Source of the DNA: Dickeya solani IPO 2222
GTDB taxonomy: Bacteria; Pseudomonadota; Gammaproteobacteria; Enterobacterales; Enterobacteriaceae
DNA length: 32,000 nt
NCBI RefSeq assembly: GCF_001644705.1
Contig: NZ_CP015137.1
Location: 3,750,001-3,782,000, forward strand
Direction of reading: 5' to 3'
The first letter of the stretch is position 1, and each line of letters begins with the position of its first letter. The position numbers and the translations under genes were made by a program. Below the pieces are notes generated by a model, which saw only the letters and a program-made list of their open reading frames with translations, was not told the origin of the DNA and searched no databases. Positions 1-22,297 of this stretch are shown in pieces.

Positions 1-3000
1 CGCGCCTACCAGTGCGTGACGCCGGAGGAAAAGGCGCTGCTGTTGAATGACTGGCAACGCGAGCGCGCCAGCCACCCGGTCACCACCACGTTGCACCAGC
101 AGTTCGAACAGCAGGCGGCGCGACGCCCGCAGGCGGTGGCGCTCAGTGGCGAAAACGGCTTGCGCGTCAGTTACCGGCAACTTAACCAGCGCGCCAACCA
201 ACTGGCCCACTATCTGCTGAAGATGAAAGCCCAGCCGGGGGAGCACCCGTCGCGGGTCGGCATCTGTCTGGAGCGCGACGACAACACGCTGGTGGCGATT
301 CTGGCTATCCTCAAGGCGGGCATGACCTACGTGCCGATCGACAGCAGCCATGCTCAGGCGCGTATTCATTACTACGTGCAGGACGCCGGGCTGAACTGGG
401 TGATTGGCGGGGAGCCGTTCCGTCATCTGTTCGCCGGTTGCGACGCCGATTTCATCAGCCTCGACAACGAAGCCGGGCTGATTGCCACCATGCCGGAAAC
501 CAACCCGGAAGTCGCCGTCAGGCCGGACTGCCTGGCGTATATCATTTACACCTCCGGCTCCACCGGCAATCCGAAAGGGGTGGAGATCCCGCATGCGAAC
601 GTGCTGAGGCTGTTCAGCGCCAGTGAACGCCACTTCACGTTCAGTGAAGCGGATGTGTGGACGTTATTTCACTCCTGCGCGTTCGACTTTTCGGTGTGGG
701 AAATCTGGGGCGCGCTGCTGTATGGCGCCCGGCTGAGCGTGGTGCCCTATTGGGTGACCCGCACGCCGGCGCGTTTTCGCCAGTGGCTGGACGATGAGCG
801 CGTCACGGTGCTCAACCAGACGCCGTCCGCGCTGTATCAACTGATTGCCGCCGACGGCCAGACGCCGGGGCGATGCGATAGCCTGCGCTACATCGTGCTG
901 GGGGGCGAGGCGCTGGAGCCGGCGTCGCTGCGGGCGTGGTTCGCCAAATACGGCGACGACCAGCCGGACATCATCAACATGTACGGCATTACCGAAACTA
1001 CGGTGCACGTCACCTGGCGTAAAATCACCCAGGCCGATGCGCAACAGGGCGGCAAAAGCCCGATCGGCGTGGCGCTGGATGACCTGCGCATCTATCTGCT
1101 GGACGCCCAGCAGAACCTGGTGCCGCTCGGGGCGACTGGCGAAATGTACGTAGGCGGCGCTGGGGTGGCCAGAGGCTATCTGCACCGGCCGGCGCTGACC
1201 GCGGAGCGTTTTATCCCGCTACAGGCTATTTTCCCGCAAGACGCTTTACCGCCTGACCAACGCGGCGAACGGGTCTACCGCAGCGGCGATCTGGCGCGTT
1301 TTCATGCCGACGGTTCGCTGGAATACCTCGGTCGTAGCGACCATCAGGTGAAAATTCGTGGTTTTCGCATCGAACTGGGGGAAATCGAAACCACCCTCAA
1401 ACGGCTGCCGCACGTGGAACAGGCGATCGTGCTGGCGCAGCGCGACCAACAGCAGCAGGCGCGGCTGGTGGCGTACGTGGTTTGCGACGAGTCGTGCACC
1501 ACCGAAATACTGCGCGCCGGATTGAAAGAAACGCTGCCGGACTACATGCTGCCGTCGGTGTTTTACTTCCTGGAGACGTTGCCGCTGACCACCAACGGTA
1601 AAATCGACCGGGCGGCGCTGCTGGCGCTGCAACAAGACCGGCCGCAGCTCGCCAGTGAATTCGTGGCGGCGCGTACCGATGTGGAACGTCAACTGGTCGG
1701 CCTGTGGCGTCAGGCGCTGCAACTCGACGCCATCGGCGTGCATGACAATTTCTTCGCGCTGGGGGGCGATTCGCTGCGCGGGGTGCAACTGGTGGGGCGC
1801 GCCAACGACCTGGACTGGAACCTGTCGCTGGTGGATCTGTTCCAGCATCAAACCATCGCCGAACTGGCGACGCTGATTGAGCAGACGCTGTCCGGGCAGC
1901 GCGGCGGCGTCGCGCGCACCGAACCGTTCAGCCTGATCTCGGAACAGGACCGGGCGCGTCTGCCGGAGGAGGTGGTGGACGCCTATCCGCTGAGCCGTAT
2001 GCAGGCGGGGATGTTCTACCACATGCAGCTGACGCCGGACGCCAACGTCTACCATTGCACCGGCACCTCGCATCTGCGGCTGTCGCAGCCGTTCGACCAG
2101 CAGGCGTTCCGCCAGTCGGTGCAGGAGGCGGTGGCGCGCCATGACGTGCTGCGCACCGCGTTCGATCTGGAAAATTACAGCCAGCCGCTGCAACTGGTGC
2201 TGCGGCATGCCGAATTGCCGATCGTGTTTGAAGATGTGCGCCACCTCAGCGCCGACGAACAGGAAGCCCGCATCAAGGCGCTGCTGGAAGCGGAGCGGGT
2301 CACGCCGTTCGACCTGCTCAAACCGACGCTGCTGCGTTTCTTCATCTCTCTGCGCGACGACACCAGTTTCCAGTTCACGCTCACCGAGTGTCACCCGGTG
2401 TACGACGGCTGGAGCTACCATTCGCTGATCGTCGAGATCTTTAACCGCTATGCGGCGCTGATTGGGGTTAAAGACTGGCAGCCGGACGCGAAAACCGGCA
2501 TCGAATACCGCGACTTTATCGCGCAGGAACAGCGGCTGATCAACGACCCGGCCCAACAACAGTGGTGGCAAGAGAAGCTGGCGGACTGCACCTTGCTGAA
2601 ACTGCCGCGTAAGGCGGGCGCTCAGGGGTACGCTGACGTGCCGCCGCGCCTGCGTTCGATATCGCTGACGCTGGACGCGGAGGTCTATAAAGGCATCCGC
2701 CGGTTGATGGCGACCCTCGCAGTACCGATGAAAAGCGTGCTGCTGAGCGCTCACCTCAAGGTGATGAGCCTGTTCAGCGGCGAAAACGACGTATTGACCG
2801 GTATCCCCACCAACGGCCGTCCGGAGGCCAAAGGCGGCGATCAGCTCTGCGGCCTGTTCCTCAACATTCTGCCGTTCCGGCAGCACTTAACCGACAACAG
2901 CTGGGGGGCGTTTATCCGCCAGACCTTCGCCAACGAGAGCGGCATGATGCCGTACCGCAGTTTCCCGCTGGCGGACATCCAGCGGCAATTCGGCCCGCAG

Positions 3001-5214
3001 CCGCTGCTGGACGAAGTGCTGTTCAACTACATGGATTTCCATGTCTACGAACGTCTGTTGCCGGAGCTGGGGTTTGAGGTCGCCAGCAACCTCAATAGCG
3101 ATGAGGTACACGAAGGCACCCACTTTGCGCTGAATGTGCATTTCCAGCACTACACGCTGACGTCGTCGCTGGTCAGCAATCAGGTTTCGATCCAACTGGA
3201 CTACAACGAGAACCTGCTCAGCCATGAACAGGTGCGGCATATGGCGGATTGCTACCGGGCGGTGTTCCGGGCGATGGTGAGCGATGAGCAGGCCATTCAT
3301 ACGCGCCAGTCGTTCCTGACCGATGCGCAACGGGCGCAGGTGGCGGCGTTCAGCCACGGCAAACCCGGCTATCAGGGAACGGATACGCTGGCGTCGCTGT
3401 TCGCCGAACAGACGGCGCGTCAGCCGGATGCCACCGCGGTGATTCTCGACGACAGACGGCTGAGCTACCGACAACTGGACGGCCACACCACGCAACTGGC
3501 GCACTGGCTGGCGCGCCACGGGGTGAAAAAAGGCGACCGCGTCGGGCTGTGGCTGGGGCGCAGCATCGAGCTGGTGGCGGCGATTCTGGCGCTGACCAAG
3601 CTGGAGGCGGTGTACGTGCCGCTTAACAAGGAAGATCCGGTCGTCCGGCGTCATGAACAACTGCTGGACGCCAACTGCGTACTGATGCTGGCCCGTCAGG
3701 GCGACGAGGCGCAGGTGCAGCAGACGCCGGTGCCGGTGCTGTATCTGGGGGAACAAGGGCCCTGGTTGTCGATGCCGCACACCGCGCTGCCGGTTTCGGC
3801 GGATAACGCGTTGCCCGCCTACGTGATGTACACCTCCGGCTCCACCGGCAAGGCGAAAGGGGTGCTGATTGGTCAGCGCGGCATTCTGCGGCTGGTCAGG
3901 GAAGTGGATTATGTCGAGCTGGAGCCGTACCAGCGTTTCCTGATGCTGGCGGCGGTGAGTTTCGACGCCTCGACGCTGGAGATGTGGGGGCCATTGCTCA
4001 ACGGCGGCGCGATTGTCATCTACCCGCATGACGGCGTGGATATTCCCCGGCTCTCACAGTTGATTCAGCGACATGAAGTGGAGTGCCTGTTCCTGACGAC
4101 GTCGCTGTTCAACCTGTTGGTGGATGAACAACCGCAGGCGTTGCAGGGCGTCAGGCAGTTGCTCAGCGGCGGCGAGGCGATGTCCGCCAGCCACGCGGCG
4201 CGCATACAGGCGCTGTACCCGCAACTGGAGCTGGTGAACGGCTACGGCCCGACGGAAAACACCACCTTCACCACCTGCTATCGCTACCGGGCCAACGCGG
4301 TGAACGACGCGCAGGGTATTCCTATCGGCCGTCCCAACCCCGGCAACGAGGTGCTGATTCTGGATCGCTTCATGCAGCCGGTGCCGGTCGGCACGCCGGG
4401 CGAACTGTATATCGGCGGCGACGGTCTGGCGCTCGACTACCTGAATCAGCGCGAACTGTACGACCGGTTGTTTGTGGCGCATCCGCAGCAGCCTGACCGC
4501 CGCCTGTACAAAACCGGCGATCTCGGTCGCTGGCTTGAAGACGGCAACATCGAATACCTCGGCCGTCTGGATAACCAGAACAAGATCCGCGGTTATCGCA
4601 TCGAACTGGGGGAAATCGAGTCGGTGCTGTGCCAGCACCCCGACATCGAACGCGCCGCCGCCGTGGTGGTGAGCGACGGACCCAAGAAGCAAATCATCGC
4701 CTGCGTGGTGCGACTGGCGGACAGCCAGCTCGACAGCCACGCGCTGCGCACCTTCCTGCTGGAGCGTCTGCCGCGTTACATGGTGCCGGGCCGCTTTAAC
4801 TTTGTCGATTCGCTGCCGTTGACCATGAACGGCAAGCTGGACGTGGCGAGTCTGAAACAGAGTTTGCAGGCGCCCGTCACCCTAAAACCGCAGAGCGACC
4901 CGCTGGTCGGGACCATTCAGGCGGTGTGGGCGGAGGTGCTGTCCATCCCATTGCCGGATCAGCAAGAGAACTTCTTTGATCTGGGCGGCGACTCGCTGCT
5001 GCTGGCGCGGGTGCACCTCAAGCTGGTGGCTAGCGGCTTCCCGCAGCTGAGCGTGCTGGATCTGCTGAATTTCACCACCATCGAGCAACTGGTGCAGCAC
5101 ATCCGCGGCAACAAGGCGCTGGCGCAGACGCAGGATCGCCAGCAGGTAGAAAGCAGTATTCAGGAAGGACGGCGCCGTTTGTCCGCGTTGCAAGCCAAAA
5201 GGAGTATGGGGTAA
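1..5214 (+). CDS. Non-ribosomal peptide synthetase, 5'-truncated by the window edge; visible domains A-T-C-A-T (two modules, no TE)
   Basis: The frame of ORF 16..5214 stays open back to nt 1 (cgc gcc tac cag tgc), so the gene begins upstream. Module 1 motifs: YIIYTSGSTGNPKGV (nt ~538), NMYGITETTVH, YRSGDLARF, GRSDHQVKIRGFRIELGEIE, NGKIDR. Carrier 1: FFALGGDSLRG (Ser codon 1771-1773). C domain: His-motif variant CHPVYDG (His codon 2392-2394). Module 2 motifs: YVMYTSGSTGKAKGV (nt ~3826), NGYGPTENTTF, YKTGDLGRW, GRLDNQNKIRGYRIELGEIE, NGKLD. Carrier 2: FFDLGGDSLLL (Ser codon 4993-4995). Stop TAA at 5212-5214. Confidence 0.97.
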   Translation, partial: RAYQCVTPEEKALLLNDWQRERASHPVTTTLHQQFEQQAARRPQAVALSGENGLRVSYRQLNQRANQLAHYLLKMKAQPGEHPSRVGICLERDDNTLVAILAILKAGMTYVPIDSSHAQARIHYYVQDAGLNWVIGGEPFRHLFAGCDADFISLDNEAGLIATMPETNPEVAVRPDCLAYIIYTSGSTGNPKGVEIPHANVLRLFSASERHFTFSEADVWTLFHSCAFDFSVWEIWGALLYGARLSVVPYWVTRTPARFRQWLDDERVTVLNQTPSALYQLIAADGQTPGRCDSLRYIVLGGEALEPASLRAWFAKYGDDQPDIINMYGITETTVHVTWRKITQADAQQGGKSPIGVALDDLRIYLLDAQQNLVPLGATGEMYVGGAGVARGYLHRPALTAERFIPLQAIFPQDALPPDQRGERVYRSGDLARFHADGSLEYLGRSDHQVKIRGFRIELGEIETTLKRLPHVEQAIVLAQRDQQQQARLVAYVVCDESCTTEILRAGLKETLPDYMLPSVFYFLETLPLTTNGKIDRAALLALQQDRPQLASEFVAARTDVERQLVGLWRQALQLDAIGVHDNFFALGGDSLRGVQLVGRANDLDWNLSLVDLFQHQTIAELATLIEQTLSGQRGGVARTEPFSLISEQDRARLPEEVVDAYPLSRMQAGMFYHMQLTPDANVYHCTGTSHLRLSQPFDQQAFRQSVQEAVARHDVLRTAFDLENYSQPLQLVLRHAELPIVFEDVRHLSADEQEARIKALLEAERVTPFDLLKPTLLRFFISLRDDTSFQFTLTECHPVYDGWSYHSLIVEIFNRYAALIGVKDWQPDAKTGIEYRDFIAQEQRLINDPAQQQWWQEKLADCTLLKLPRKAGAQGYADVPPRLRSISLTLDAEVYKGIRRLMATLAVPMKSVLLSAHLKVMSLFSGENDVLTGIPTNGRPEAKGGDQLCGLFLNILPFRQHLTDNSWGAFIRQTFANESGMMPYRSFPLADIQRQFGPQPLLDEVLFNYMDFHVYERLLPELGFEVASNLNSDEVHEGTHFALNVHFQHYTLTSSLVSNQVSIQLDYNENLLSHEQVRHMADCYRAVFRAMVSDEQAIHTRQSFLTDAQRAQVAAFSHGKPGYQGTDTLASLFAEQTARQPDATAVILDDRRLSYRQLDGHTTQLAHWLARHGVKKGDRVGLWLGRSIELVAAILALTKLEAVYVPLNKEDPVVRRHEQLLDANCVLMLARQGDEAQVQQTPVPVLYLGEQGPWLSMPHTALPVSADNALPAYVMYTSGSTGKAKGVLIGQRGILRLVREVDYVELEPYQRFLMLAAVSFDASTLEMWGPLLNGGAIVIYPHDGVDIPRLSQLIQRHEVECLFLTTSLFNLLVDEQPQALQGVRQLLSGGEAMSASHAARIQALYPQLELVNGYGPTENTTFTTCYRYRANAVNDAQGIPIGRPNPGNEVLILDRFMQPVPVGTPGELYIGGDGLALDYLNQRELYDRLFVAHPQQPDRRLYKTGDLGRWLEDGNIEYLGRLDNQNKIRGYRIELGEIESVLCQHPDIERAAAVVVSDGPKKQIIACVVRLADSQLDSHALRTFLLERLPRYMVPGRFNFVDSLPLTMNGKLDVASLKQSLQAPVTLKPQSDPLVGTIQAVWAEVLSIPLPDQQENFFDLGGDSLLLARVHLKLVASGFPQLSVLDLLNFTTIEQLVQHIRGNKALAQTQDRQQVESSIQEGRRRLSALQAKRSMG

Positions 5215-8200
5215 TGGAGAAGGTGCAATCAACCCACGGGTATGAACTGGCGATTATCGGTATGGCCGGGGTGTTCCCCGGCGCTGACGATGTGGCGCAA
5301 TTCTGGCGGAATCTGGTGGCGGGGGTGGAGTCGATCCGCACCCTGAGCGATGAAGAGCTGGACGCCGCCGCCGTCCCTGCTTCGCTGCGTCAGCAGGAAG
5401 ATTATCAGGCGCGGGCGGCGGACCTGACGCAGCCCTGCGCGTTTGACGCGGCGTTTTTTGGCTATTCGCCGCGGGAAGCGGAAGCGATTGACCCGCAACA
5501 GCGGGTATTTCTGGAGGTATGCTGGCACGCGCTGGAAAACGCCGGCTACGCGCCGGACAAGTTCGATGGGCAAATCGGCGTCTATGCCAGCAGCGCGGAG
5601 AGCAGTTACCTGATCCACTGTCTGATGGACCGGCCTGACGTGTTGCAGCGCGTGTCGCTGTCGGATCTGCAAAACGGCAACAACCGCGATTTTGTCTCCA
5701 CCCGCGTGGCCTACAAGCTGAACCTGCACGGGCCGACGATGACCATCGGCGCGGCCTGCGCCAGCTCGCTGGTGTCGCTGCACTTCGCGTGTCAGGCGTT
5801 GCTGATGGGCGAATGCGATATGGCGCTGGCGGGCGGCGTGCATATCGGCATGCCGGATAAGGGCGGCTACCGGTTCGGCGACAGCGGGATTCTGTCGCAC
5901 GATGGCCATTGCCGTTCCTTTGATGCCGACGCCAGCGGCATGATTGGCGGGGATGGCGCGGCGGCGGTGGTTGTCAAACGCTTGCAGGATGCGCTGGACA
6001 GCGGCGACACCATCACGGCGATCATCAAAGGCTCGGCCATCAGCAACGACGGCTCTCGCAAGCTGGGCTTCAGCGCACCCTCGGTGGCCGGGCAGGCGGA
6101 TGCCCTGCAACGGGCGTTGCTGACGGCGGACGTGCCGGCCGGCAGCGTGGGGTATATCGAGGCGCACGGCACCGGTACCCACCTGGGCGACCCGATCGAA
6201 ATCAAGGCGCTCAAAGAGGCGTACCAGATTGATAATCCGGTGCCGGAAAGCTGCGCGGTGGCGTCGGTCAAAGCCAACATCGGCCATCTGGATTCGGCGG
6301 CGGGCGTAACCGGGGTCATCAAGGCGGCGCAGATGCTGCATTATGGTTATATCCCGCCCGCCATCAGTTTTACCCGCCTTAACCCGGAAATCGTGCTGGA
6401 CGGCACCCAATTCTATATCCCGACCGAAGGCAAAGCCTGGGTCAGCGATGCGGTGCGCCGCGCCGGGGTGAGCGCGTTCGGTATCGGCGGCACCAACGCC
6501 CACGTCATTCTGGAGGAGTCACGCTTTACACGTTCGTCCGGCGCCGCGCCGCAGACGCAATTGCTGTGCTTTTCCGGCCATACGCCGGCCGCATTGCAAG
6601 ACAACATCGCCCGTTTTCATTATTGGTTCGCCTCCACGCCGCAGGCATCGCTGGCCGATGCCGCTTATACGCTACAGCAGGGACGTAGCGACCTGCCTTA
6701 TCGCTACAGTCTGGCGGTGGAAGGCCGTGAGCAGGCGCTGTCGCTGCTGGTGCAGGCCCGACCGGCAACGGCCAGGGTCGCGAAAGAGAAAAGCGCGTTG
6801 GTGTTCATGTTCAGCGGGCAAGGTTCGCAGTACCCCGGCATGATGGCCGGGGTTTATCAGCAGGCGGCGCTGTTCCGTGAAACGGTGGACCACTGCGCCG
6901 CATTGCTGCATCCGTTGCTGGGCAGGGATATTCGCCCGTTGCTGTTCGAAACCGACGGGCAGGACCCGCATTCACTGCTGTACCAGACCCGTTTTACCCA
7001 ACCGGCGCTGTTCGTCGTCGAATACGCCCTGAGCCGCCAACTGATGGACTGGGGGATCGTGCCGACCGCCTGCATCGGGCACAGTATCGGCGAATACGTG
7101 GCGGCCTGTCTGGCCGGGGTGTTCAGCCTGGAAGAGGCGCTGACGCTGGTGAGCCGTCGCGGCGAACTGATGAACGCCATGCCGCCCGGCACGATGCTGG
7201 CGCTGTCGATTCCGGCGGCGCAGGCGCGTGAAGCGCTGATCGACGGCGTGACGCTGGCGGCCAGCAATGCGCCTGAGTTTTGCGTGGTGTCAGGCCCGGC
7301 CGAGGCCATCGACCGCATGGCGCAGCGCATGGAGGAACGCGGGGTTGAAACCAAACGGCTGCACACGTCCCACGCGTTCCACAGCCCGATGATGGACGGC
7401 TGTCTGGAGGCGTTCCGACGCGCATTCGACAACGTGACCCTACAGGCGCCGCAGCTGCCGTTTATCTCCTGCCTGACGGGCGATTGGATAAGCGATGAGC
7501 AGGCGACCGACCCGGATTACTGGGTGCGTCAGCTGCGCGAACCGGTCGCCTTCAGCGAGGGGATTGCCAGCCTGCTGAGTTACGGCCCGTCGCTGTTGCT
7601 GGAAGTCGGCCCCGGCAAGGCGCTGACCGGGCTGGCGACGCTGCAACTGGACGGCGAGCGGGCGGATAGCCGCGTGCTGGGCACCCAACCCGACTTTCGC
7701 CACCGCGAGAACGATTATCGCCAGTTGCTGAGCGCGCTGGGGCAGCTCTGGCAGTGGGACATCAAGCCGGACTGGCGCGCATTCCACCGCCACCAGTCCC
7801 GTTGCCGCATTCCGCTGCCGGGCTACGCCTTCCAGCGTCAGGTGTACGATCTGACCAGCCTGGCAGCGCCGGCAACCACGGCGTCGCCGCGCGCTGTTCC
7901 GGCCGGTCAGCGCCTACCGCTGGAGCAGTGGGCCAGCCAGCCTTGCTGGCGCCAGAAACCGCTCAACGCCGCTCAGCGCGTGACGTGGCGCGGTCGCGGC
8001 ATCGTACTGTTTATGGATAAAACCGGGATGGCGGAACGGTTGGCCGGGCAACTGGAACAACTGGGCGCGCGGGTGTGCCGGGTTACGGCGGGAAAACGCT
8101 TTACCCGTAAAAATCCGCTGAATTGGGTGATCGACCCCAACGCACCGCAGGATCTGGCGGCGCTGGCGTCCTCGCTGGAGAAGCAGACGTTTCCGCTGGA

Positions 8201-9767
8201 TCACCTGATCCTGTGCTGGCCGGTGTCGCGGCGGGCGTTGCCGGTGCCTACCGCCATCGGTCACTACGAAACCCTGCTGAACATTGCCCGTCAGTTCGCC
8301 GGCACCGAGCGCCAGACGCCGCTGGTGCTGCATGTGGTGTCCAATGGGCTGCATGCGGTGACGCCGACGGATCGTTGCGACCCGGCGCGTTCGCTGCTGG
8401 TGGGGCCTTGTCGGGTCCTGGAAAAAGAGTTCGAACAGCTGGTCTGTCGCAGCATCGACATCGATGCGCCGTCGCGCGTGCTGTTTGCGCCGGCTTTTGA
8501 CCGGAATCTGGCCCCGTTGCTGGCGGAGCTGGCCGCGCCGGGTGACGAGCCGTTTGTGGCGTTGCGCGGCGGCGTTCGCTACATCCCGAGTCTGGAGCAA
8601 CTGGTGGCCGAACCGGCGGACGAGGAACAGTTGCCGGTGCTGACCCACGGCCGTTATCTGCTGACCGGCGGTTTCGGCGGCATCGGCATGACGGTGGCGC
8701 AGTGGCTGGCGCAGCACTACCGGGCGCACGTCATCCTGCTGGGGCGCGGTGACGTACCGCCGGAATCTCACTGGCAGCAATGGCTGGATGAACACGACGA
8801 CAGTAACGAGAAGTCGCTGAAAATCAGACAGCTACAAAAAATTCAACAGTTGGGCGGCACGGTGACGGTGATCGCCGCCGACCTGAGCAACGCCCGTCAG
8901 GTCAATCAGGCGCTGAAAGCCGTTACACACGCCCACGGTGCCATTCATGGCGTGTTCCACTGCGCCGGGGTGGCGGATGGTCGGTTGATTCAGCAGCGCA
9001 CCCCGGCGGATTCGCTGGCGGTGTTCAAGGCCAAGGTGTGGGGCACGCTGGTGCTGGAGCGTTACTTCCAGCGCCGCCCGCTCGATTTCTTCGTGCAGTG
9101 TTCATCGCTGGCGGCGGCGGTCGGTCCGATGGGCCAGGTGGCCTACTGTTCCGCCAACGCCTATCAGGATGCCTGGGCCACCGCCCGCAGCCGTCGCAGG
9201 ACGCACACCCGTTACCTGTCTATCGGCTGGGATTCCTGGCAGGAAGTGGGGATGGCGGTGGACAGCCTGAAAAAATGGAACAGCGGCGACACCGAAGCGG
9301 TGATCCGTCACGGCATCCGGCCGCAAGAAGGCTGCGAACTGCTGGCCCGGCTGCTGGTGCGTCAGGCGCCGCAGTATGTGATATCGACGCGCGGACTGCC
9401 GCTGCCGGACGCCGATACCCCGGCCGAGGATGACGCGCAGGCGGAGGAGGCCGGGCAGGAGACCAGCCTGTACCCGCGCCCGCCGCTCAGCAACGCCTAT
9501 CTGGCGCCCCGTGACCACATTGAGCAGACCATCGCCCGCATCTGGCAGGAAAAAATGGGGCTGGGGCCGATCGGCGTTGACGATGACTTCTTCGAACTGA
9601 ACGGTCATTCGCTGATGGCGGTGCAAATCATCGCCCAGATCAAGCAACAGCTGAAGGTGGCGTTCCCGGTGGGCTTTATTTATGACAATCCCACCATCGC
9701 TAAACTGGCCGGGCAGGCGCGACTGCGTCAGGAAGCTGCCCAACCGGCGCTGGAGGCGAGCGTATGA
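5214..9767 (+). CDS. Type I polyketide synthase, single module KS-AT-KR-carrier
   Basis: ATG 5214 overlaps the NRPS stop (TAATG). KS: Cys in TIGAACASSLV (codon 5757-5759), His motifs EAHGTGTHLGDP and NIGHLDSAAG. AT: GHSIGE (Ser codon 7083-7085) and HAFHS (malonyl-type signature). KR: Rossmann TGGFGGIGMT (nt ~8664) and catalytic YCSAN. Carrier: DDFFELNGHSLMAV (Ser codon 9609-9611). No DH, ER or TE motifs seen. Confidence 0.97.
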   Translation: MEKVQSTHGYELAIIGMAGVFPGADDVAQFWRNLVAGVESIRTLSDEELDAAAVPASLRQQEDYQARAADLTQPCAFDAAFFGYSPREAEAIDPQQRVFLEVCWHALENAGYAPDKFDGQIGVYASSAESSYLIHCLMDRPDVLQRVSLSDLQNGNNRDFVSTRVAYKLNLHGPTMTIGAACASSLVSLHFACQALLMGECDMALAGGVHIGMPDKGGYRFGDSGILSHDGHCRSFDADASGMIGGDGAAAVVVKRLQDALDSGDTITAIIKGSAISNDGSRKLGFSAPSVAGQADALQRALLTADVPAGSVGYIEAHGTGTHLGDPIEIKALKEAYQIDNPVPESCAVASVKANIGHLDSAAGVTGVIKAAQMLHYGYIPPAISFTRLNPEIVLDGTQFYIPTEGKAWVSDAVRRAGVSAFGIGGTNAHVILEESRFTRSSGAAPQTQLLCFSGHTPAALQDNIARFHYWFASTPQASLADAAYTLQQGRSDLPYRYSLAVEGREQALSLLVQARPATARVAKEKSALVFMFSGQGSQYPGMMAGVYQQAALFRETVDHCAALLHPLLGRDIRPLLFETDGQDPHSLLYQTRFTQPALFVVEYALSRQLMDWGIVPTACIGHSIGEYVAACLAGVFSLEEALTLVSRRGELMNAMPPGTMLALSIPAAQAREALIDGVTLAASNAPEFCVVSGPAEAIDRMAQRMEERGVETKRLHTSHAFHSPMMDGCLEAFRRAFDNVTLQAPQLPFISCLTGDWISDEQATDPDYWVRQLREPVAFSEGIASLLSYGPSLLLEVGPGKALTGLATLQLDGERADSRVLGTQPDFRHRENDYRQLLSALGQLWQWDIKPDWRAFHRHQSRCRIPLPGYAFQRQVYDLTSLAAPATTASPRAVPAGQRLPLEQWASQPCWRQKPLNAAQRVTWRGRGIVLFMDKTGMAERLAGQLEQLGARVCRVTAGKRFTRKNPLNWVIDPNAPQDLAALASSLEKQTFPLDHLILCWPVSRRALPVPTAIGHYETLLNIARQFAGTERQTPLVLHVVSNGLHAVTPTDRCDPARSLLVGPCRVLEKEFEQLVCRSIDIDAPSRVLFAPAFDRNLAPLLAELAAPGDEPFVALRGGVRYIPSLEQLVAEPADEEQLPVLTHGRYLLTGGFGGIGMTVAQWLAQHYRAHVILLGRGDVPPESHWQQWLDEHDDSNEKSLKIRQLQKIQQLGGTVTVIAADLSNARQVNQALKAVTHAHGAIHGVFHCAGVADGRLIQQRTPADSLAVFKAKVWGTLVLERYFQRRPLDFFVQCSSLAAAVGPMGQVAYCSANAYQDAWATARSRRRTHTRYLSIGWDSWQEVGMAVDSLKKWNSGDTEAVIRHGIRPQEGCELLARLLVRQAPQYVISTRGLPLPDADTPAEDDAQAEEAGQETSLYPRPPLSNAYLAPRDHIEQTIARIWQEKMGLGPIGVDDDFFELNGHSLMAVQIIAQIKQQLKVAFPVGFIYDNPTIAKLAGQARLRQEAAQPALEASV

Positions 9768-11275
9768 GCAGCCTGAATTCGCTTTCGGCATCATCGGAGC
9801 ATGTCGTGAAGGCGGCGGCCGCAGGGGAGGCGGTGCCGCTGGTGTATGCCCAGCACTGTTTCTGGTTTGTGGCGATGACGCTGGGGGATACCGCCAACAA
9901 TCAGTCCGCTCTGTTGATTGAAGGCGATTTGCAGCCGGAACTGCTGGAAAAAGCGTTGAACTGCCTGATCCACCGGCACAGCAGTTTGCGCATGGCCTTC
10001 AGCCAGTGGACGCCGGTGCAGCAATGCCGGGCGTTCCACGGTTTTGACCTCTCGGTGCTTAAGCTGGATGGGTGCGGCGAAGAGGCGCGCCGCCGGCGTA
10101 TTTCAGACATTTCGGCAAGGTTTATGGCGCAGCCGTTCGTGCTGGACAAGCCGCCCCATCTGCGGGCGCAATTGTTCCAGCTGCAATCGCAACGCTACCT
10201 GCTGCTGTTGTGTATGCCGCACATCATTGCCGATGGCGGCGCCTTTCACCTGTTCGAGCAGCAATTGTGGCAGGTTTACTCGGCGCTGAACGCTGGCCGC
10301 ACCCCGCGTGACGATCAGGACGCGACGCCGATTGAACACTGGGCGGCGCAGGAGCGTTTGCAAAGCGACGAGGCGTTGCAGGCCGAGCTGGCGTTCTGGC
10401 GCCAGCATCTGGCGGGCTATCGCTATGCCCACTTTCCGCTGTCGCTGATCAACCAGCAGGAGTTGATCGACCACCAGTGCGATATCCCGCTGGCAGACAG
10501 CGATATGGAGCGGCTAAAGCAACTGGCGCGCCAGCACCGTATGAGTGTGCAGATGGTGTTGCTGGCGGTGATCGGGCAGGTGGTGCATCAGTTGAGCGGC
10601 GAGTCGCGCTTTGCGCTCAATTCGGTGTTGGAAGGGCGCAATCAGCCGGGGTCCGAAACGCTGATGGCGCCGCAGCTGCGCGCCATGCCGGTGCCGATGG
10701 ATTTCAGCCAGCAGCCGGATCTCGCCTCGTTGCTGGAGCAGGTGCGGCAGAATGTGCTGCAAGCCTATGAGCATATGCACTCGTGGAGCCTGCCGATTGG
10801 CATTCTGGCCCGCCGGCGCTGGTCGCACAGCCCCCGGCTGTTGGTGACAGGCATCGAATGGCTGAGCCGCCTTTATTGCGGCATCGCCCGCAAGGCCCGG
10901 CTTTATCCACGTTTTCTGGCGGATTTCCTGTTCATGGAACCCAAGCCGCCCCGCTGGTGGTGGGCGCGGGACCCGGCGTGGCGGGCCAAAGGCGTGGCCG
11001 ATCCGCTGATCAACATCAACGTGTTGCAAGATGCCTTCAAGACCGACGCGCCGCAGGCGCAGTCGGCGACTCTGGCTATCAGCCACTGCCGGGAATCGGA
11101 CTATTTTATCGACGCCGACATCGCGACCCGCTGGGAAAGCGACACCATCAATATCTACATTACCCGCGGGGCCGACCGGCAGTTAAAACTGCACATCACG
11201 TGCTGCTGTTTTAATCAGGACGGTATGGATCGTTTTTTACAGTTGCTCCGTCAACAGCTCTCTTCCCTTGGTTAA
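9764..11275 (+). CDS. Free-standing NRPS condensation-domain protein (503 aa)
   Basis: ATG 9764 overlaps the PKS stop (ATGA). It has an N-terminal C-domain motif LIHRHSSLRMAF and the His-motif variant MPHIIADGG (His codon 10220-10222). No adenylation or carrier motifs are present in this ORF. Confidence 0.88.
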   Translation: MSSLNSLSASSEHVVKAAAAGEAVPLVYAQHCFWFVAMTLGDTANNQSALLIEGDLQPELLEKALNCLIHRHSSLRMAFSQWTPVQQCRAFHGFDLSVLKLDGCGEEARRRRISDISARFMAQPFVLDKPPHLRAQLFQLQSQRYLLLLCMPHIIADGGAFHLFEQQLWQVYSALNAGRTPRDDQDATPIEHWAAQERLQSDEALQAELAFWRQHLAGYRYAHFPLSLINQQELIDHQCDIPLADSDMERLKQLARQHRMSVQMVLLAVIGQVVHQLSGESRFALNSVLEGRNQPGSETLMAPQLRAMPVPMDFSQQPDLASLLEQVRQNVLQAYEHMHSWSLPIGILARRRWSHSPRLLVTGIEWLSRLYCGIARKARLYPRFLADFLFMEPKPPRWWWARDPAWRAKGVADPLININVLQDAFKTDAPQAQSATLAISHCRESDYFIDADIATRWESDTINIYITRGADRQLKLHITCCCFNQDGMDRFLQLLRQQLSSLG

Positions 11276-11291
11276 ATGAGCCGGACATTCA

Positions 11292-12236
11292 ATGGATATG
11301 AAACAGAAAGAGAAAGTGATCGAGTTTGATCAGGTGGTGAAAACCTACAAGGACCATCAGGCATTAAAGGGGGTGTCGCTGGATGTCTACCGCGGCGAGT
11401 TCCTCGGCCTGCTGGGGCCGAATGGCGCGGGCAAAACCACGCTGGTGGAAATTCTTGAGGGATTGAAACAGCCGGACAGCGGCAAGGTCAGGATACTGGG
11501 CAAGAGCTGGAGCAGGGACAAGGACTGGCTACGCCACCGCCTGAGCGGGGTGCTGCAGGAAACCCTGTTCATCAACAAGCTGAAGGTGGAGGAAACCCTG
11601 TCGCTGTTTGCCAGCTTTTACCGCTGCTCCCGTCAACGCATGAAAGACGTGATGGAGATGGTGGAGCTGACGGCAAAGCGTAAAACCTATGTCGAAGGGT
11701 TGTCCGGCGGCGAACGCCAGCGGCTGGCGCTGGGGGTGGCCATCCTCAACGAACCGGAAATCATGATTCTGGACGAACCGACCACCGGCCTGGACCCGCG
11801 TATTCGCCACGATACCTGGGATATTTTGCGCAAGCTGAACAAAGAGAATAACGCCACCATGATTCTGACCACGCATTACATGGAGGAAGCGGAATACCTG
11901 TGCGATCGCATTTGCATCATGAATCAGGGGGAAATCCTCACCCACGGCACTATGGATGAACTGCTCAGGAAACACTGCGTGGGCGAGGTGATTGAATGCC
12001 GGGCCTCGCATCCGGAGCGGCTGCAGGCGCTGCATCAGCACCCCAAGGTGCTGCGTTACCACTATGACGCCACCACGCAGCGCATCACTTTGCTGACTTT
12101 TAACGCCACCCAGTTTCTTGGCGACTTACTGACGATAGCGAACGAAGCGCGTACCGACATCATCGAACTGGTGGTGCGCAAAAAAACGCTGGATGACCTT
12201 TTTATGACGCTGGCAGGCCGGGGGTTCCATGAATAA
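11292..12236 (+). CDS. ABC transporter ATP-binding protein (ABC-2/DrrA-like exporter type)
   Basis: Walker A GPNGAGKTT, signature LSGGERQRL, Walker B IMILDEPTTGLD, H-loop TTHYMEEA. Length 314 aa. A second in-frame ATG at 11298 leaves the exact start slightly uncertain. Confidence 0.95.
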   Translation: MDMKQKEKVIEFDQVVKTYKDHQALKGVSLDVYRGEFLGLLGPNGAGKTTLVEILEGLKQPDSGKVRILGKSWSRDKDWLRHRLSGVLQETLFINKLKVEETLSLFASFYRCSRQRMKDVMEMVELTAKRKTYVEGLSGGERQRLALGVAILNEPEIMILDEPTTGLDPRIRHDTWDILRKLNKENNATMILTTHYMEEAEYLCDRICIMNQGEILTHGTMDELLRKHCVGEVIECRASHPERLQALHQHPKVLRYHYDATTQRITLLTFNATQFLGDLLTIANEARTDIIELVVRKKTLDDLFMTLAGRGFHE

Positions 12237-13341
12237 CGCATTGTTTTCGTTGATGCTGACGCAGTTCCGTCAATATTTCCGCGAACCCCAGATCCTGTTC
12301 TGGTCGTTCGGTTTTCCCCTGCTGCTGGTGTGGCTGCTGGGGGTGTCGTTCTCGATGCAGGATATCCCGGAACGGCATATCGGCATTCTGTTGCCGCAGG
12401 ATGCCGGCCAGCAGGCGCAGATCCGTGCCTGGGGGCAGACGCTGACGGAAAAACCGCATGAAATCGCCTCGATCGCCAATCGTTCGGAGGTGAAGCGCGA
12501 GAACACGGTCAAAATCAAGTACACCGTCAATTACTATCAGGATTACAACGACATCATTCTGGCGCTCAAGCGCGGCGATATTCAGATTATCGTGGAAACG
12601 CTGACGGACCAGGATCAGACGCAACGCCGTCTGTACTATCTTGATCCGCAGAATAGTGAAGCGATGCTGACCTACTACCTGCTGAATGAATCGGAACAGG
12701 CGCTCGGTCAGGCGGTGGCGCAGAATCTGTCGGTGCTCGACACCCCCGGCCTGCGTTATATCGATTTTCTGGTGCCGGGATTACTGGCGATGGCCATCAT
12801 GGAGACTTGCCTGATCGCCGTCGGCTGGGCGCTGGTGGAAAAACGCATCACGCGGGTGACGCGGCAGATGTGCATTACGCCGATGAACCCGTCCCTGTTC
12901 CTGCTGGCGCACATCCTATCCTGCTTCATTATCAATTTTATCGAGATCCTGATTATCTACTGGTTCGCCAAAATCTATTTCGATGTCAGCATTCAGGGGC
13001 AGTTTGGCGCGTTCCTGCTGCTGAATCTGGCCGGTAATCTCTGTTTCTCGGGCATTGCGGTGCTGGCGGCGTCGCGCGCCAAAAAAGCGCAGACGGCCAA
13101 CGGCTTGCTGGAGGTGATCATTCTGGTGCAGGTGCTGGTGTCCGGTATTTTCTTCAGCTACAAGAATTTTCCCGGCGCCGCCTTTATCGACCTGCTGCCG
13201 CTGACCATGCTGGCGAACATGATGCGCCGGGTGTTTATCGAAGGCGCGGACGTGGTCGCCGTGCTGCCGGCCGCCGCCGCGCTGTCGGCGATTGGGCTGG
13301 TTAGTTTCCTGGTCGGCAAGCGTATTTTCCGCTGGTATTGA
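12229..13341 (+). CDS. ABC-2 type transporter permease
   Basis: Its start overlaps the ATPase gene by 8 nt. Length 370 aa. It has one N-terminal hydrophobic segment (ILFWSFGFPLLLVWLLGVSF), a ~130-aa hydrophilic loop, then five further hydrophobic segments. This is the usual ABC-2 permease layout. Confidence 0.85.
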   Translation: MNNALFSLMLTQFRQYFREPQILFWSFGFPLLLVWLLGVSFSMQDIPERHIGILLPQDAGQQAQIRAWGQTLTEKPHEIASIANRSEVKRENTVKIKYTVNYYQDYNDIILALKRGDIQIIVETLTDQDQTQRRLYYLDPQNSEAMLTYYLLNESEQALGQAVAQNLSVLDTPGLRYIDFLVPGLLAMAIMETCLIAVGWALVEKRITRVTRQMCITPMNPSLFLLAHILSCFIINFIEILIIYWFAKIYFDVSIQGQFGAFLLLNLAGNLCFSGIAVLAASRAKKAQTANGLLEVIILVQVLVSGIFFSYKNFPGAAFIDLLPLTMLANMMRRVFIEGADVVAVLPAAAALSAIGLVSFLVGKRIFRWY

Positions 13342-13537
13342 CGCAAGGTGCCGGTTTTTTCTGGCGTGAAAAACTGTGCTGAGGTGGGCGACGTCGTCGG
13401 ATGAGCCGCATGGAGGCGGCGAAAGCCCGTGTCGCGTCGGACAAAAACGCCGCGAGCGTTTTTGAACAGCGTTTACGCTGGCCTGCAAGGGTGAATCCGT
13501 CAGGGCTCATCATTTAGCCATCAGCCAGTGGTCAAAG

Positions 13538-13556
13538 GGAGGCGCTTTGCGCCTCC
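13538..13556. terminator. GC-rich hairpin between the convergent ABC operon and hydrolase gene (likely terminator, mainly for the minus-strand hydrolase)
   Basis: GGAGGCGC-TTT-GCGCCTCC is a perfect 8-bp stem lying 5 nt beyond the hydrolase stop codon (13561-13563 on the minus strand). Short A/T runs flank it on both sides (aaag...gtcttta). The U-tract is weak. Confidence 0.5.
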
Positions 13557-13560
13557 GTCT

Positions 13561-14592
13561 TTATTGCGGGCAGCGGGTGTCGGCAATAAAACGGGTTTGG
13601 TCGGCGAGGTAACCGGCGGTAAAAATCTGGCGCGGGAAAAACAGCCCCAGCGTCCAGGATTTTATCAGCGACGTTTCTACCGATTTATCGACCATATTAT
13701 GCGTTGACTGCGGGTAATATTTTACCGTCAGCTGTCCCGGTCGTGTTAATAACGACTGATAGACATCGCGGGTATTATTGACGTCCACGTTAATATCTTT
13801 GCCACCCAGCATTAATAATGCCTTGGTATGTATATTTTTCAGATCGTCGGTAGCGTCGGCCTGAAAGTTTTTCTGAATAAATGTCCAGCGATCCGGCGTT
13901 AAATCGATATTTCCCGCTATATCCTGCTGATATTGCGCCAGCGTTTTTCCCTGCTGTAAATAACGCAGAATCACCGCATTGCGCGAGACCGCCTGTTCAA
14001 TCGTCTGCGCGGAGGCCTGCTTGTCCTGCATGCTGGCGAGGGTGTTGTATTGCCCCTGTTGCAGCCAGTTGATGGCGGGGGAAACGGCAATCATGAAGCA
14101 GACCGCCGGGTCGAGACGCGCGACTTTGGGCAGTACCCAGCCGCCCTGGCTGGCGCCCCACAGGCCGATGCGCGCGCCGTCCAGCTGCGGGTTGGCTTGT
14201 ACCCAGCGAATGGCGGCCATCACCTCGTTGGCGCGGTCGTCCATCGTTTGCAGCAGCCAGTTGCCGGGTGCGCCGCCAATGCCGGGTTTGTTCCACGATA
14301 GGCTGGCGTAGCCGGCTTTGGCGATCGCTTCCCACATCGGGCGATAGAAACCGCCGTGGGTGGCTTCAATCGGCCCGTCGCCGTGGATGAAAATCACCAC
14401 CCCCGGTTTCTGGCCGGGAGCCATGTTGGCCGGCATCGCCAGAATAGCCTCCAGCGGCTGCGCCGGGGTGGGAATAATGACTTTCTCTTCCCGTATTTTG
14501 TAATAGTTCTGATAGAGCAGGAAACTGAGCAAGGTCAGTGCGATGGCACAGGTAATCGGCATCCAGCGTGGCAGACGAAAAAACGTATCCAT
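13561..14592 (-). CDS. Membrane-anchored alpha/beta-fold serine hydrolase (acylpeptide-hydrolase/dienelactone-hydrolase-like)
   Basis: N-terminal hydrophobic anchor MPITCAIALTLLSFLLY. Nucleophile elbow GLWGASQGG (GxSxG). Candidate acid LGGKDINVD and His in PQSTHNM. Length 343 aa. No Shine-Dalgarno (SD) sequence precedes the ATG at 14592. Confidence 0.85.
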   Translation of the reverse strand: MDTFFRLPRWMPITCAIALTLLSFLLYQNYYKIREEKVIIPTPAQPLEAILAMPANMAPGQKPGVVIFIHGDGPIEATHGGFYRPMWEAIAKAGYASLSWNKPGIGGAPGNWLLQTMDDRANEVMAAIRWVQANPQLDGARIGLWGASQGGWVLPKVARLDPAVCFMIAVSPAINWLQQGQYNTLASMQDKQASAQTIEQAVSRNAVILRYLQQGKTLAQYQQDIAGNIDLTPDRWTFIQKNFQADATDDLKNIHTKALLMLGGKDINVDVNNTRDVYQSLLTRPGQLTVKYYPQSTHNMVDKSVETSLIKSWTLGLFFPRQIFTAGYLADQTRFIADTRCPQ

Positions 14593-14599
14593 GATTTTT

Positions 14600-14674
14600 T
14601 CAGTTCAGCGTCAGGGCAGAGGAATAACAGCGTAAATGATTTCGACGCAGCGGGGAACTTATATTGTGTGGCAT
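14600..14674 (-). CDS. Candidate 24-codon upstream ORF (MPHNISSPLRRNHLRCYSSALTLN) ending 7 nt before the hydrolase start
   Basis: On the minus strand a consensus SD AAGGAG (14681-14686) is followed by a 6-nt spacer and ATG (14672-14674). The stop TGA (14600-14602) lies 7 nt upstream of the hydrolase ATG. I recognise no homology, so support rests only on initiation signals and position. Confidence 0.3.
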   Translation of the reverse strand: MPHNISSPLRRNHLRCYSSALTLN

Positions 14675-14832
14675 GTTTCGCTCCTTTGTAACAGGAATAA
14701 CACCGACAGATTAAAGGACGTTTTAATGACGAAGGCGTTACCTGATATTTCTTTTCGCCATATTTTTAGCGCGGCACGGACATACTGTCGGGGATAAAAA
14801 TCGTGCCCCGTTTTTCGTGTTATTGTCAACGC

Positions 14833-14863
14833 GGTGGCCTGCCGACTGTGCCGACAGACCACC
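14833..14863 (-). other. Stem-loop 15 nt downstream of the RND gene stop (possible terminator or RNA-stabilising hairpin)
   Basis: The minus-strand RNA GGUGGUCUGUCG-GCACAGU-CGGCAGGCCACC forms a 12-bp stem including two G-U pairs. No U-run follows, so it is not a canonical intrinsic terminator. Confidence 0.3.
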
Positions 14864-14877
14864 GTTGCAGCCGTGGG

Positions 14878-17800
14878 TTAGCGTTCGTCCGGCGCCGTCG
14901 GCGTTTTCATTGCCCGGCGGGCGTCACGCCAGCGGTCGTAGCGCTCCTGCACGCTCATAACCGCCACGAAGAACACCGGCACGAAGAACACCGCCAGTAC
15001 GGTGGCGCTGACCATCCCGCCGAACACGCCGGTGCCGATGGCGTGCTGGGTTTCGGCGCTGGCGCCTGACGCCACCATCAGCGGCACCACCCCCAGCGCA
15101 AACGCCAGCGAGGTCATCAGGATTGGGCGCAGGCGCAGGCGCGCCGCCGTTACCGCGGCATCCACCAGTTCATGCCCTTGTTCGCGCAGCTGTCTGGCGA
15201 ACTCGACGATCAGGATGGCGTTCTTGGCCGACAGCCCGATCACGGTAATCAGCCCCACCTTGAAGAACACATCGTTCGGCATATCGCGCAGGATCACCGC
15301 CAGCACCGCGCCGAGCAGCCCCAGCGGCACCACCAGCATAACCGATAGCGGAATCGACCAGCTTTCATACAGCGCCGCCAGCACCAGAAACACCACCACC
15401 ATCGACAGCAGCAGCAACATCGGCGCCTGCGCGGCGGATTGCCGTTCCTGCAGCGATTGCCCGGTCCATGCCACGGTGAAGCCGGGCGGCAACTGCGCCG
15501 CCAGCCGTTCCATCTCCGCCATCGCCGCGCCGCTGGAGACGCCGGGCACGGCGCTGCCGGAGATTCTGGCCGCCAGGAAACCCTGATAGCGCGTCAGTTG
15601 CAGCGGGGTGTCGCTCCAGACCGGCGTCACCACTTCTTTCAGCGAAACCATGCCGCCCGCGGTGTTGCGCACATACAGCCGGAGCACATCGTCCAACTGC
15701 ATACGCGCCGGCGCGTCGGCCTGAATGATTACCTGCTGCATGCGGCCGGCGTTCGGGAAATCGTTCACGTACAGCGAGCCGATGGCGGCGGACAGCGTCT
15801 CGCTGAGGGTGCTGAACGATACGCCGAGCGCTTCCGCCTTTTGGCGATCGATATTCAGCCGCACCGTGCTGCCGGGCGGCAGGCCGTCCGGGTAGACGCC
15901 GGCGACGATGTGGCTCTGCGCCGCCAGTGTCAGCAGTTTGGTTTCCGCCGCCTTGAGCGCGGTGTAACCCTGGCCGGCGCGGTCTTGCAGGCGCAGGGTA
16001 AAGCCGGACGAGGTGCCCAGCTCATCGATCGCGGGCGGCATCAGCGTCATGGCGGTGCCTTCGCGGATCGACGACATCGCCTGCTGAGCCTGCGTTACTT
16101 CGCCCTGCGCGGTAGCGCCGTCGCGGGCCGACCAGTCTTTCAGCGTGGTGAACGCCATCGCCGCGTTGGGACCGGAGCCGGAGAAACCGAAGCCGAGAAT
16201 CGACATATTGGACGCGATGCCGGGGCGCGAGGCGACGTGTTGTTCGTAGGTTTTGACCACGTCTAGCGTGCGCGCTTCGGTGGCGTCAGACGGCAGTTGG
16301 ATCGACGTCATGAAGTACCCCTGATCCTCTTGCGGCAGGAAGTCGGACGGCAATTCACTGAAGATCCACGCCAGCGAGCCGGTCAGCGCGGCAAACAGCA
16401 GCAACATGCTGCCGGAACGGCGCAGCAGCGCGCGGGTGCCGGCGGCGTAATGCTGCGTCAACTGTTCGAAACGGCGGTTAAAGCCGCCGAAAAAGCCGCG
16501 TTTCTCATGATGACCGTCGGCAACCGGCGTCAGCAGCGTGGCACACAGCGCAGGGGTCAGCGTCAGCGCCAGAAACGCCGAGAACAGGATTGATACCGCC
16601 ATCGACAGGGTAAATTGCCGGTAGATGACCCCCACTGAACCGCTGGCGAACGCCATCGGGATAAACACGGCCGACAGCACCAGCGTGATGCCGATAATCG
16701 CGCCGGTGATCTCCTTCATCGCTCGGGTGGTCGCCGCTTTGGGCGACAGCCGTTCCTGCGCCATCAACCGCTCAACGTTTTCCACCACCACGATGGCGTC
16801 ATCCACGATGATGCCGATCGCCAGCACCATGCCGAACATCGTCAGCACGTTGATGGAGAAACCGGCCGCCAGCATCACCGTGAAGGTGCCGAGCAGGGCG
16901 ATGGGGGCGACAATCGCCGGGATCAGGGTATAACGCACATTTTGCAGAAACAGGTACATCACCAGAAACACCAGCACCATCGCTTCGGCCAGCGTCCTGA
17001 CCACCTGCTCGATGGAGATTTTGACGAACGGCGCGGTGTTGAACGGCAACGAATAGCCCATCCCGGCGGGCATGGACGATTTCAGCTCGGCCATACGCTG
17101 CGCGATCGCGGCGGCGGTGCGCACCGCATTCGCGCCCGGCGCCAGTTGAACGGCGGCGGCGGTGGCGTCCTTGCCGTTTTCACGCACGGAAAAACCGTAG
17201 GACTGCGCGCCCAGTTCGACGCGCGCCACGTCGGCCAGCACCACCCGCGAGCCGTCTTCCCGGGCGCGTAGTAAGATGGCGGCGAATTGCTCCGGGGTTT
17301 CCAACTGCCCTTGTACCGTCAGCGGAATGGTTACCCGCTGTCCCGGTAGGGTGGGCGCGTCGCCGACCCGGCCGGGGGCGATTTGCGCGTTCTGCTGGGT
17401 GATGGCGGTCGACAGGTCGTTCATGGTCAGGCCGTAGGACAGCAGCTTGTTCGGATCGACCCAGACGCGCATCGCCTGTTCGGCGCCAAAGAGCTGAACG
17501 CGGCCGACGCCGTCGATCCGGCGCAGCTCCTCGATCACGTTACGCGCCAGGTAGTCGCTCAGCGCCACCTGGTCGAAACGCCCGCTATCGGAGGTCAGGC
17601 TGACCAGCAGCAGAAAGCCCGATGAGGCGGACTCCACCTGCAGGCCGTTTTGCCTGACCGTTTGCGGCAGCCGGGGTTCGACCGATTTGATGCGGTTTTG
17701 CACGTCCACCTGCGCCAGCTCCGGGTCGGTGCCCGGTTTGAAGGTGATGCTGATCTGCGCCGAGCCGGAGGTGTCCACCGACGACTCGAAATAGAGCAGG

Positions 17801-18021: not shown

Positions 18022-18041
18022 GGCGCGTGGCTCCTTTGCTG

Positions 18042-19196: not shown

Positions 19197-19391
19197 GGGT
19201 AGACGGGCGGTTGCGCCGTTCGGCTCCGCCTGACCGGGCGTCGCCAGCAGCAGGGCCGACAGAATACAGGCGGCCGGGTATTGATACGGTTTCTTGGTGT
19301 TCATATCACGTGGTAATCCCTGTTTACCGGCCATAGGGAGGCCAGACTGCGGAAGTCTGCGCCTGCTGTGTGCGGTTTCCGTTGGGGAAAT

Positions 19392-19409: not shown

Positions 19410-19438
19410 ACCTGCATTTTTTTATCATGAGCTGACCA

Positions 19439-22263: not shown

Positions 22264-22297
22264 TGGGCTTTCTCCCTGTCTTTCTGTTCTGGATAGC

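Follow-up and report, generated by a model that had tools for sequence, protein, structure and literature searches.

The 32,000-nucleotide stretch of Dickeya solani DNA analysed here (the window) carries at positions 1–14592 what is almost certainly the 3′ end (zmsI′, J, K, L, M and N) of the chromosomal zeamine (zms) cluster. This assignment is based on gene and domain content, sequence identity, synteny, motifs and the genes found upstream. The functional zeamine unit runs past 14592 to about nt 21357, where it takes in desBA, a DzrR box and dzrR. The finding is already known, since PMC10168573 describes the D. solani cluster as a 55-kb unit, zmsABCDEFGIJKLMNPQRS, with an organisation identical to that of strain EC1, and PMC4522980 had earlier drawn it beside the EC1 and AS12 clusters; the literature already covers the organisation, the release by a free condensation (C) domain, the trimming and the neighbouring resistance pump. 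As a discovery it is thus of little importance. Its use is that of a positive control: an earlier reading of the raw sequence (the original prediction) recognised a nonribosomal peptide synthetase–polyketide synthase (NRPS-PKS) line without thioesterase (TE), released onto a polyamine, and predicted what should lie upstream. The loose end of some value is the site of action of the hydrolase, which bears on export-coupled zeamine maturation. The zms genes of the window are the following.

1–5214, forward strand: 3′ part of a dimodular NRPS, homologue of Zmn17 (ZmsI, by inference from the letter order); from Pfam, identity, motifs and adenylation (A) codes.
5214–9767, forward strand: single-module type I PKS, KS-AT-KR-ACP, homologue of Zmn18 (ZmsJ, likewise inferred); from Pfam, motifs and identity.
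9764–11275, forward strand: free-standing condensation protein of 503 amino acids (aa), ZmsK/Zmn19 homologue; from Pfam (Condensation only), motif and identity.
11292–12236, forward strand: ABC transporter ATPase, ZmsL/Zmn20 homologue; from Pfam ABC_tran.
12229–13341, forward strand: ABC-2 permease, ZmsM/Zmn21 homologue; from Pfam ABC2_membrane and identity (86% EC1-type, 68% Serratia plymuthica-type).
13561–14592, reverse strand: alpha/beta serine hydrolase, ZmsN/Zmn22 homologue, a putative prezeamine-trimming acylpeptide hydrolase; from Pfam S33/S15/S9 and the motif GASQG.

The open reading frames (ORFs) and the Pfam matches agree with the organisation given in the original prediction, that is, an A-T-C-A-T NRPS, a KS-AT-KR-carrier PKS, a 503-aa protein made only of a C domain, an ABC-2 pair and a convergent hydrolase. 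The tight coupling claimed for the five forward genes was also found, the successive junctions being a 1-nt overlap, a 4-nt ATGA overlap, a 16-nt gap and an 8-nt overlap.

The NRPS frame is open from nt 1 and comprises the last 1737 of 2169 aa, with the first C domain lying upstream of nt 1. The fragment gave the Pfam order AMP-binding, PP-binding, Condensation, AMP-binding, PP-binding. Its alignment to S. plymuthica Zmn17 starts at residue 450 of the latter, runs colinearly to the end and shows 61% identity over 1747 aa; the EC1-type protein is 84% identical. The CHxxxDG motif of its last C domain reads ECHPVYDGW (fragment residue 797), a variant of the kind published for Zmn (PMC3547906). 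The codes of the two A domains, read by hand from the A4–A5 and A10 motifs without a dedicated predictor, were DFWNVGMVHK (Thr) and DALFLGGTFK (Val), each equal in 9 of 10 positions to the Zmn17 codes DFWNIGMVHK and DALFIGGTFK (PMC3547906).

In the PKS, the active-site Cys of the KS lies in GAACASS, the AT displays GHSIGE and HAFH (malonyl type), and the KR has GGxGxxG and no LDD. The protein, whose exact sequence is titled "type I polyketide synthase [Dickeya solani]", was 79% identical to the EC1-type and 57% to the S. plymuthica-type homologue. Its PP-binding domain ends at residue 1499 of 1517, 18 residues from the C terminus, and neither a TE nor a reductase domain follows, as had been claimed for the last carrier domain of the line. 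No PF00975 occurred among the Pfam families of any gene in the window locus or in the upstream locus described below. The search for a release domain elsewhere in these loci found no TE, and the sole reductase was a stand-alone Zmn14 homologue, a type of enzyme which PMC5811116 assigns to the release of the polyamine chain and not of the peptide-ketide.

The free-standing C protein contains the PHxxxDG motif as MPHIIADGG (residue 152), as in Zmn19 (PMC3547906). It was 75% identical, over its full length, to the protein that UniRef names ZmsK of D. zeae, and about 50% to S. plymuthica Zmn19. A sequence search of the PDB with ZmsK gave no close solved relative, the best matches being the teixobactin Txo2/Txo1 C domains (E about 1e-25). 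The length of 503 aa differs from the 439 aa published for Zmn19 of strain RVH1. Over its first 332 residues this published sequence agrees at 99% with a 512-aa homologue of the S. plymuthica type, and beyond them the two are unrelated, a pattern that would be explained by what is probably a frame error in the deposited sequence.

The EC1-type locus used for comparison was reached through the protein that UniRef names ZmsK (D. oryzae EC1 was formerly D. zeae). There, zmsI–N and desAB–dzrR have the same gene order and orientation as in the window, from the dimodular NRPS through the histidine kinase. The identities from zmsI′ to zmsN were 84, 79, 75, 92, 86 and 80%, the DzrR box agreed in 24 of 25 bases, and the lengths were nearly equal, with differences in ZmsK (503 aa in D. 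solani versus 497), ZmsN (343 versus 347) and the histidine kinase (394 versus 365). The G+C content at third codon positions was 68–84% in D. solani versus 39–65% in the EC1-type locus, with 68–73% in the S. plymuthica-type genes; the EC1 paper had noted the EC1 cluster as low in G+C (48.77%). Within the window, the G+C content is about 56% in zmsL, zmsM and zmsN and 61–65% in the NRPS, PKS and C genes.

The zmn17–22 genes of S. plymuthica RVH1/AS12 display the same order, the same domains, the same odd C motifs and the same Thr and Val codes (PMC3547906, PMC5811116). All six were colinear with the window genes, at identities of 61, 57, 50, 73, 68 and 57%, and it is in this organism that release and trimming were shown genetically. 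The protein sizes, including that of the NRPS encoded upstream of the window, were 4166, 2169, 1517, 503, 314, 370 and 343 aa in D. solani versus 4169, 2180, 1531, 439, 314, 371 and 345 aa for Zmn16–22 (PMC3547906, Table 1). The Serratia cluster differs in that desAB do not lie beside it (PMC6538784). Colinearity with the EC1-type zms genes (75–92%) and with the S. plymuthica-type zmn17–22 genes (50–73%) thus bore out the orthology that had been proposed. The more specific statement, that the gene order matches zmn16–zmn22 and zms, stands for zmn17–22 and for the colinearity with zms, but not for zmn16, whose homologue lies wholly upstream of nt 1.

These comparisons bear on a different assignment, to a fabclavine-type (Xenorhabdus fcl) cluster, in which the same machinery would yield the full peptide-polyketide-polyamine conjugate as the end product, untrimmed. 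The fcl clusters contain the same mix of enzymes (NRPS, PKS, free C domain and enzymes like polyunsaturated fatty acid (PUFA) synthases), Xenorhabdus homologues of the free C domain (45–47%) and of the nitrilase encoded upstream (62–67%) were found, and prezeamine and fabclavine IVa have the same peptide part (PMC5811116). However, the zms/zmn proteins of Dickeya and Serratia are much closer in identity, also for the C domain, the source organism is D. solani, and a Zmn22 homologue is present at 13561–14592, whereas the fabclavine cluster has no hydrolase of this type and fabclavines therefore remain untrimmed (PMC5811116). Rejected on the presence of the Zmn22-type hydrolase and on the higher zms/zmn identity, the fabclavine-type assignment is extremely improbable.

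With regard to the genes that the zeamine assignment places upstream, the original prediction located the polyamine-forming genes before nt 1, and PUFA-like, aminotransferase and reductase genes were indeed found there, on the same record, CP051457.1, that carries the window's sequence. Window nt 1 corresponds to nt 4788 of the CP051457.1 locus used for comparison. The upstream locus overlaps the window locus by 933 identical bases, and the two jointly contain one 12501-nt gene for the 4166-aa NRPS. The route to it went from the Zmn15 homologue (nitrilase) of S. plymuthica NBRC 102599 to a Dickeya member of its cluster and from there to the window's own record. With the last 1155 aa of the 4166-aa NRPS as query, only generic NRPS fragments were retrieved, of at most about 2000 aa and 30–40% identity; a contig scan with a 400-aa piece of it gave no Dickeya locus among the matches listed, and S. 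plymuthica NBRC 102599 gave Zmn15–17. The upstream genes, in order and with their Pfam-based assignment unless otherwise indicated, are the following.

Gene 1: PfaA-like KS-AT-KR-DH protein, 2312 aa, cut at the start of the upstream locus.
Gene 2: PfaC-like KS-CLF-FabA protein, 1437 aa.
Gene 3: NMO/PfaD-aminotransferase fusion, 1002 aa.
Gene 4: KR, 255 aa.
Gene 5: NAD_binding_4 (thioester) reductase, 421 aa, stand-alone, Zmn14 homologue.
Gene 6: CN-hydrolase (nitrilase), 257 aa, Zmn15 homologue.
Gene 7: NRPS, 4166 aa, Zmn16 homologue (this assignment not from Pfam), wholly upstream of nt 1.

The stretch from the cut end of the PfaA-like gene to the start of the 4166-aa NRPS lies about 13.8–24.6 kb upstream of window nt 1. 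The sizes of the first six products (2312, 1437, 1002, 255, 421 and 257 aa) can be compared with 2259, 1439, 1010, 255, 412 and 259 aa for Zmn10–15 (PMC3547906).

The release step, the trimming step and the chemistry proposed for D. solani are drawn from the literature on the orthologous clusters and carried over by orthology. In S. plymuthica, deletion of zmn16, 17, 18 or 19 leaves zeamine II only; a zmn22 deletion mutant makes neither zeamine nor zeamine I and has increased prezeamines (PMC5811116). By orthology, the 4166-aa NRPS would start the peptide and the last two NRPS modules would add Thr and Val, to give a hexapeptide ending in Thr-Val. The KS-AT-KR-ACP module would then add one or two malonyl units, with the beta-keto groups being reduced. 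Without a TE, the free C protein ZmsK would release the peptide-ketide from the ACP by joining it, in amide linkage, to the primary amine of a long-chain polyamino alcohol (zeamine II), presumably supplied by the PUFA-synthase-like enzymes, the aminotransferase and the thioester reductase encoded upstream. ZmsN would strip the N-terminal pentapeptide and so convert prezeamine to zeamine, ZmsL/M would be the presumed exporter, and desBA and dzrR with the DzrR box would form a zeamine-inducible resistance module of the resistance-nodulation-division (RND) type. The release logic has a parallel in VibH of the vibriobactin pathway, which acylates free norspermidine: there, too, a stand-alone C domain releases the chain onto a soluble polyamine (PMC3547906). 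In sequence, however, VibH shows no detectable similarity to ZmsK, and it was absent from the PDB matches of ZmsK at E ≤ 0.001.

Some points weigh against this picture. No product chemistry for D. solani was found, and the exact product is assumed, since PMC10168573 names only a "zeamine-like molecule". Each hand-read A code has one residue that differs from Zmn17, V for I in one and L for I in the other. The ATPase shares a 90% cluster with WP_016943542.1, the ZmsL accession of PMC6538784, and is 92% identical to the EC1-type and 73% to the S. plymuthica-type protein. The export role of ZmsL/M is putative: their deletion left the zeamine resistance of EC1 unchanged, a result which rules out only a role in resistance (PMC6538784). 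Finally, the five coupled genes may be more than one simple transcription unit. In D. oryzae, zmsK is served by a promoter of its own to which Lrp binds, and in an lrp mutant the response of zmsG/I/J is opposite to that of zmsK/N (PMC12145271), so the tight coupling is no proof of a single transcript. As zmsK overlaps the stop codon of the PKS gene, a zmsK promoter like that of EC1 would sit inside the PKS gene, at about 9300–9767 of the window.

Concerning the source of the DNA and the state of the genes, window positions 1–19767 were 100% identical to CP051457.1 and CM001860.1, and an exact look-up found the PKS protein on 24 contigs. The exact window proteins are D. solani entries, among them ANE76728–ANE76734, and one UniRef entry of identical sequence names strain D s0432-1. 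The same 90% clusters also contain D. fangzhongdai and a few D. dadantii proteins. In the D. solani assemblies JABAOP010000002.1 and CM001860.1 several zms genes are called in pieces: the C domain as 360 and 138 aa, the permease as 71 and 283 aa, and the 4166-aa NRPS as 2219, 813 and 1106 aa. Compared to the window, JABAOP010000002.1 shows 6 gaps and 0 mismatches, and because only gaps and no mismatches occur, the split genes look like assembly indel errors rather than true pseudogenes.

It might be thought, from these split genes in draft assemblies and from the report that D. solani strains with the arcZ2 allele (IPO 2222, IFB0223) show low zms expression and activity (PMC10168573), that the cluster is present in this strain but silent or defective, its genes being without current function. 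However, no ORF of the window is broken and all equal their counterparts in complete genomes, the differences of the draft suggest assembly errors, and the exact proteins occur in D s0432-1, in which deletion of zmsA led to loss of the activity against Bacillus subtilis, Streptomyces scabiei and E. coli (PMC10168573). On the intact ORFs and the activity of D s0432-1, the reading of a silent cluster was rejected and is considered very unlikely.

Concerning the hydrolase ZmsN, the protein was 80% identical to the EC1-type and 57% to the S. plymuthica-type homologue, with its nucleophile in the motif GASQG; a PDB sequence search gave no close solved relative (best E 8e-8). In PMC5811116, Zmn22 is reported to lack a periplasmic signal sequence and the cleavage is placed in the cytoplasm; the original prediction described the hydrolase as membrane-anchored and the product as first exported and then trimmed. 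The family was sampled by a full HMMER search, which gave 136 representatives at E ≤ 1e-30, from which 30 full-length relatives (31–51% identity) were taken. In nearly all sampled ZmsN/Zmn22 relatives the N-terminus is basic and leads into a hydrophobic segment of about 19 residues. The Kyte-Doolittle value of this segment was at least 1.6 in 29 of the 30, and when the two Dickeya ZmsN are counted besides the 30 relatives, the N-side was the more positive one in 29 of 32 sequences. A hydrophobic N-terminus with this charge pattern is typical of exported or signal-anchored proteins. In ZmsN itself, the segment WMPITCAIALTLLSFLLYQ reaches 1.54, just below the usual cut-off of 1.6, and the charges on its two sides differ only weakly, with +2 on the N-side and +1 on the C-side. 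The lipobox pattern was matched in two relatives (LAGC and LIGC), with only LAGC located at the end of the hydrophobic segment. The predicted signal-anchor-like segment across the family would be a small new point, at odds with the statement of no export signal in PMC5811116. The description as membrane-anchored thus gains from the N-terminal segment of the relatives, but ZmsN itself is borderline and the anchor is a prediction.

These features can be interpreted in two ways. On the one hand, ZmsN/Zmn22 may be a family of signal-anchored proteins, some of them possibly lipoproteins, with the catalytic domain in the periplasm, in which case maturation of prezeamine would follow its export by ZmsL/M; this has somewhat under an even chance. 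If true, it would mean an export-coupled activation like that of xenocoumacin or colibactin, in contradiction with the published cytoplasmic cleavage. On the other hand, the cluster may be of the zeamine type with a hydrolase that trims in the cytoplasm before export, as inferred for Zmn22 in PMC5811116, a reading to which we give a probability a little short of one half. The hydrophobic segment would in that case serve as an anchor that is peripheral or faces the cytoplasm, or it would play no topological role. The cytoplasmic site is favoured by the lack of a periplasmic signal in Zmn22 and the abundance of untrimmed prezeamines in supernatants, both from PMC5811116, and by the borderline hydropathy and weak charge bias of ZmsN. 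It is disfavoured by the clear segment in 29 of 30 relatives, by the charge asymmetry of 29 of 32 sequences and by the two lipobox-pattern matches, with LAGC alone at the end of the segment. So, judging from predicted features of the proteins, the odds of a periplasm-facing hydrolase seem roughly equal to those of the published cytoplasmic one. The sequence of export followed by trimming, as originally described, is not established, as PMC5811116 argues for cytoplasmic trimming and PMC6538784 shows only that ZmsL/M are dispensable for resistance.

The nearest functional parallels are XcnG and ClbP, which likewise cut an N-terminal leader off an NRPS/PKS product, coupled to export, and would possibly act at the same extracytoplasmic site as ZmsN if the prediction of its anchor is right. 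They belong to another enzyme family: XcnG and ClbP are periplasmic peptidases with a membrane anchor, and the leader they cut off is an N-acyl-D-Asn (PMC5811116), while ZmsN is an alpha/beta hydrolase of the S9/S33-like kind. Zeamine is not a strict prodrug system, since the prezeamines are themselves active (PMC5811116).

A terminator-like element lies between the convergent permease and hydrolase genes.

13538–13556, forward strand: GC-rich hairpin followed by a T-run; from a consensus scan, weak.

The terminator consensus scan gave 4 sites in the region versus 2.4 expected, which is weak evidence, and the counts of the terminator and promoter scans around the hydrolase were near the shuffle expectation.

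Beyond zmsN, the window continues with the resistance module.

14878–18021, reverse strand: RND inner-membrane pump, DesB homologue; ACR_tran, 89% to the EC1-type protein, same position (PMC6538784).
18042–19334, reverse strand: RND membrane-fusion protein, DesA homologue; Pfam, 82% to the EC1-type 420-aa protein.
19389–19413, reverse strand: predicted DzrR box in the desA–dzrR intergenic region, with two CTCCAT direct repeats; 24 of 25 bases versus the footprint.
19439–20176, forward strand: OmpR-type response regulator, DzrR homologue, divergent from desA; Pfam, 92% to the EC1-type protein, 738 bp as in PMC10052836.
20173–21357, forward strand: sensor histidine kinase adjoining dzrR ("S1" in PMC10052836); HAMP/HisKA/HATPase_c, 83% over 356 aa to the EC1-type protein.

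The layout is that of the DesAB-DzrR module (PMC6538784, PMC10052836), with desB and desA beside zmsN, a divergent dzrR and a DzrR box, and with desC, for the outer-membrane component, located elsewhere in the genome, outside the window. The start of DesA is at 19334 (430 aa) or at 19304 (420 aa). The predicted DzrR box was the only match in the window (0 in 100 shuffles) to the DNase I footprint CGGTTCTCCATCATATCTCCATATT (PMC10052836). The sensor kinase, which is reported as not needed for zeamine resistance (PMC10052836), has 394 aa versus 365 aa in the EC1-type locus; the alignment ends at residue 356, and the ORF overlaps a convergent LysR gene by 15 nt.

The remaining features are ordinary neighbours, followed by an ORF in a stretch of lower G+C content.

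21343–22473, reverse strand: LysR-type regulator.
22382–23065: RraA-like protein.
23632–24477: alpha/beta hydrolase.
24491–25489, reverse strand: LysR-type regulator.
27257–28981: two-domain ABC ATPase, 574 aa.
29150–30319: 389-aa ORF with no Pfam match, in the lower-G+C stretch (49%).

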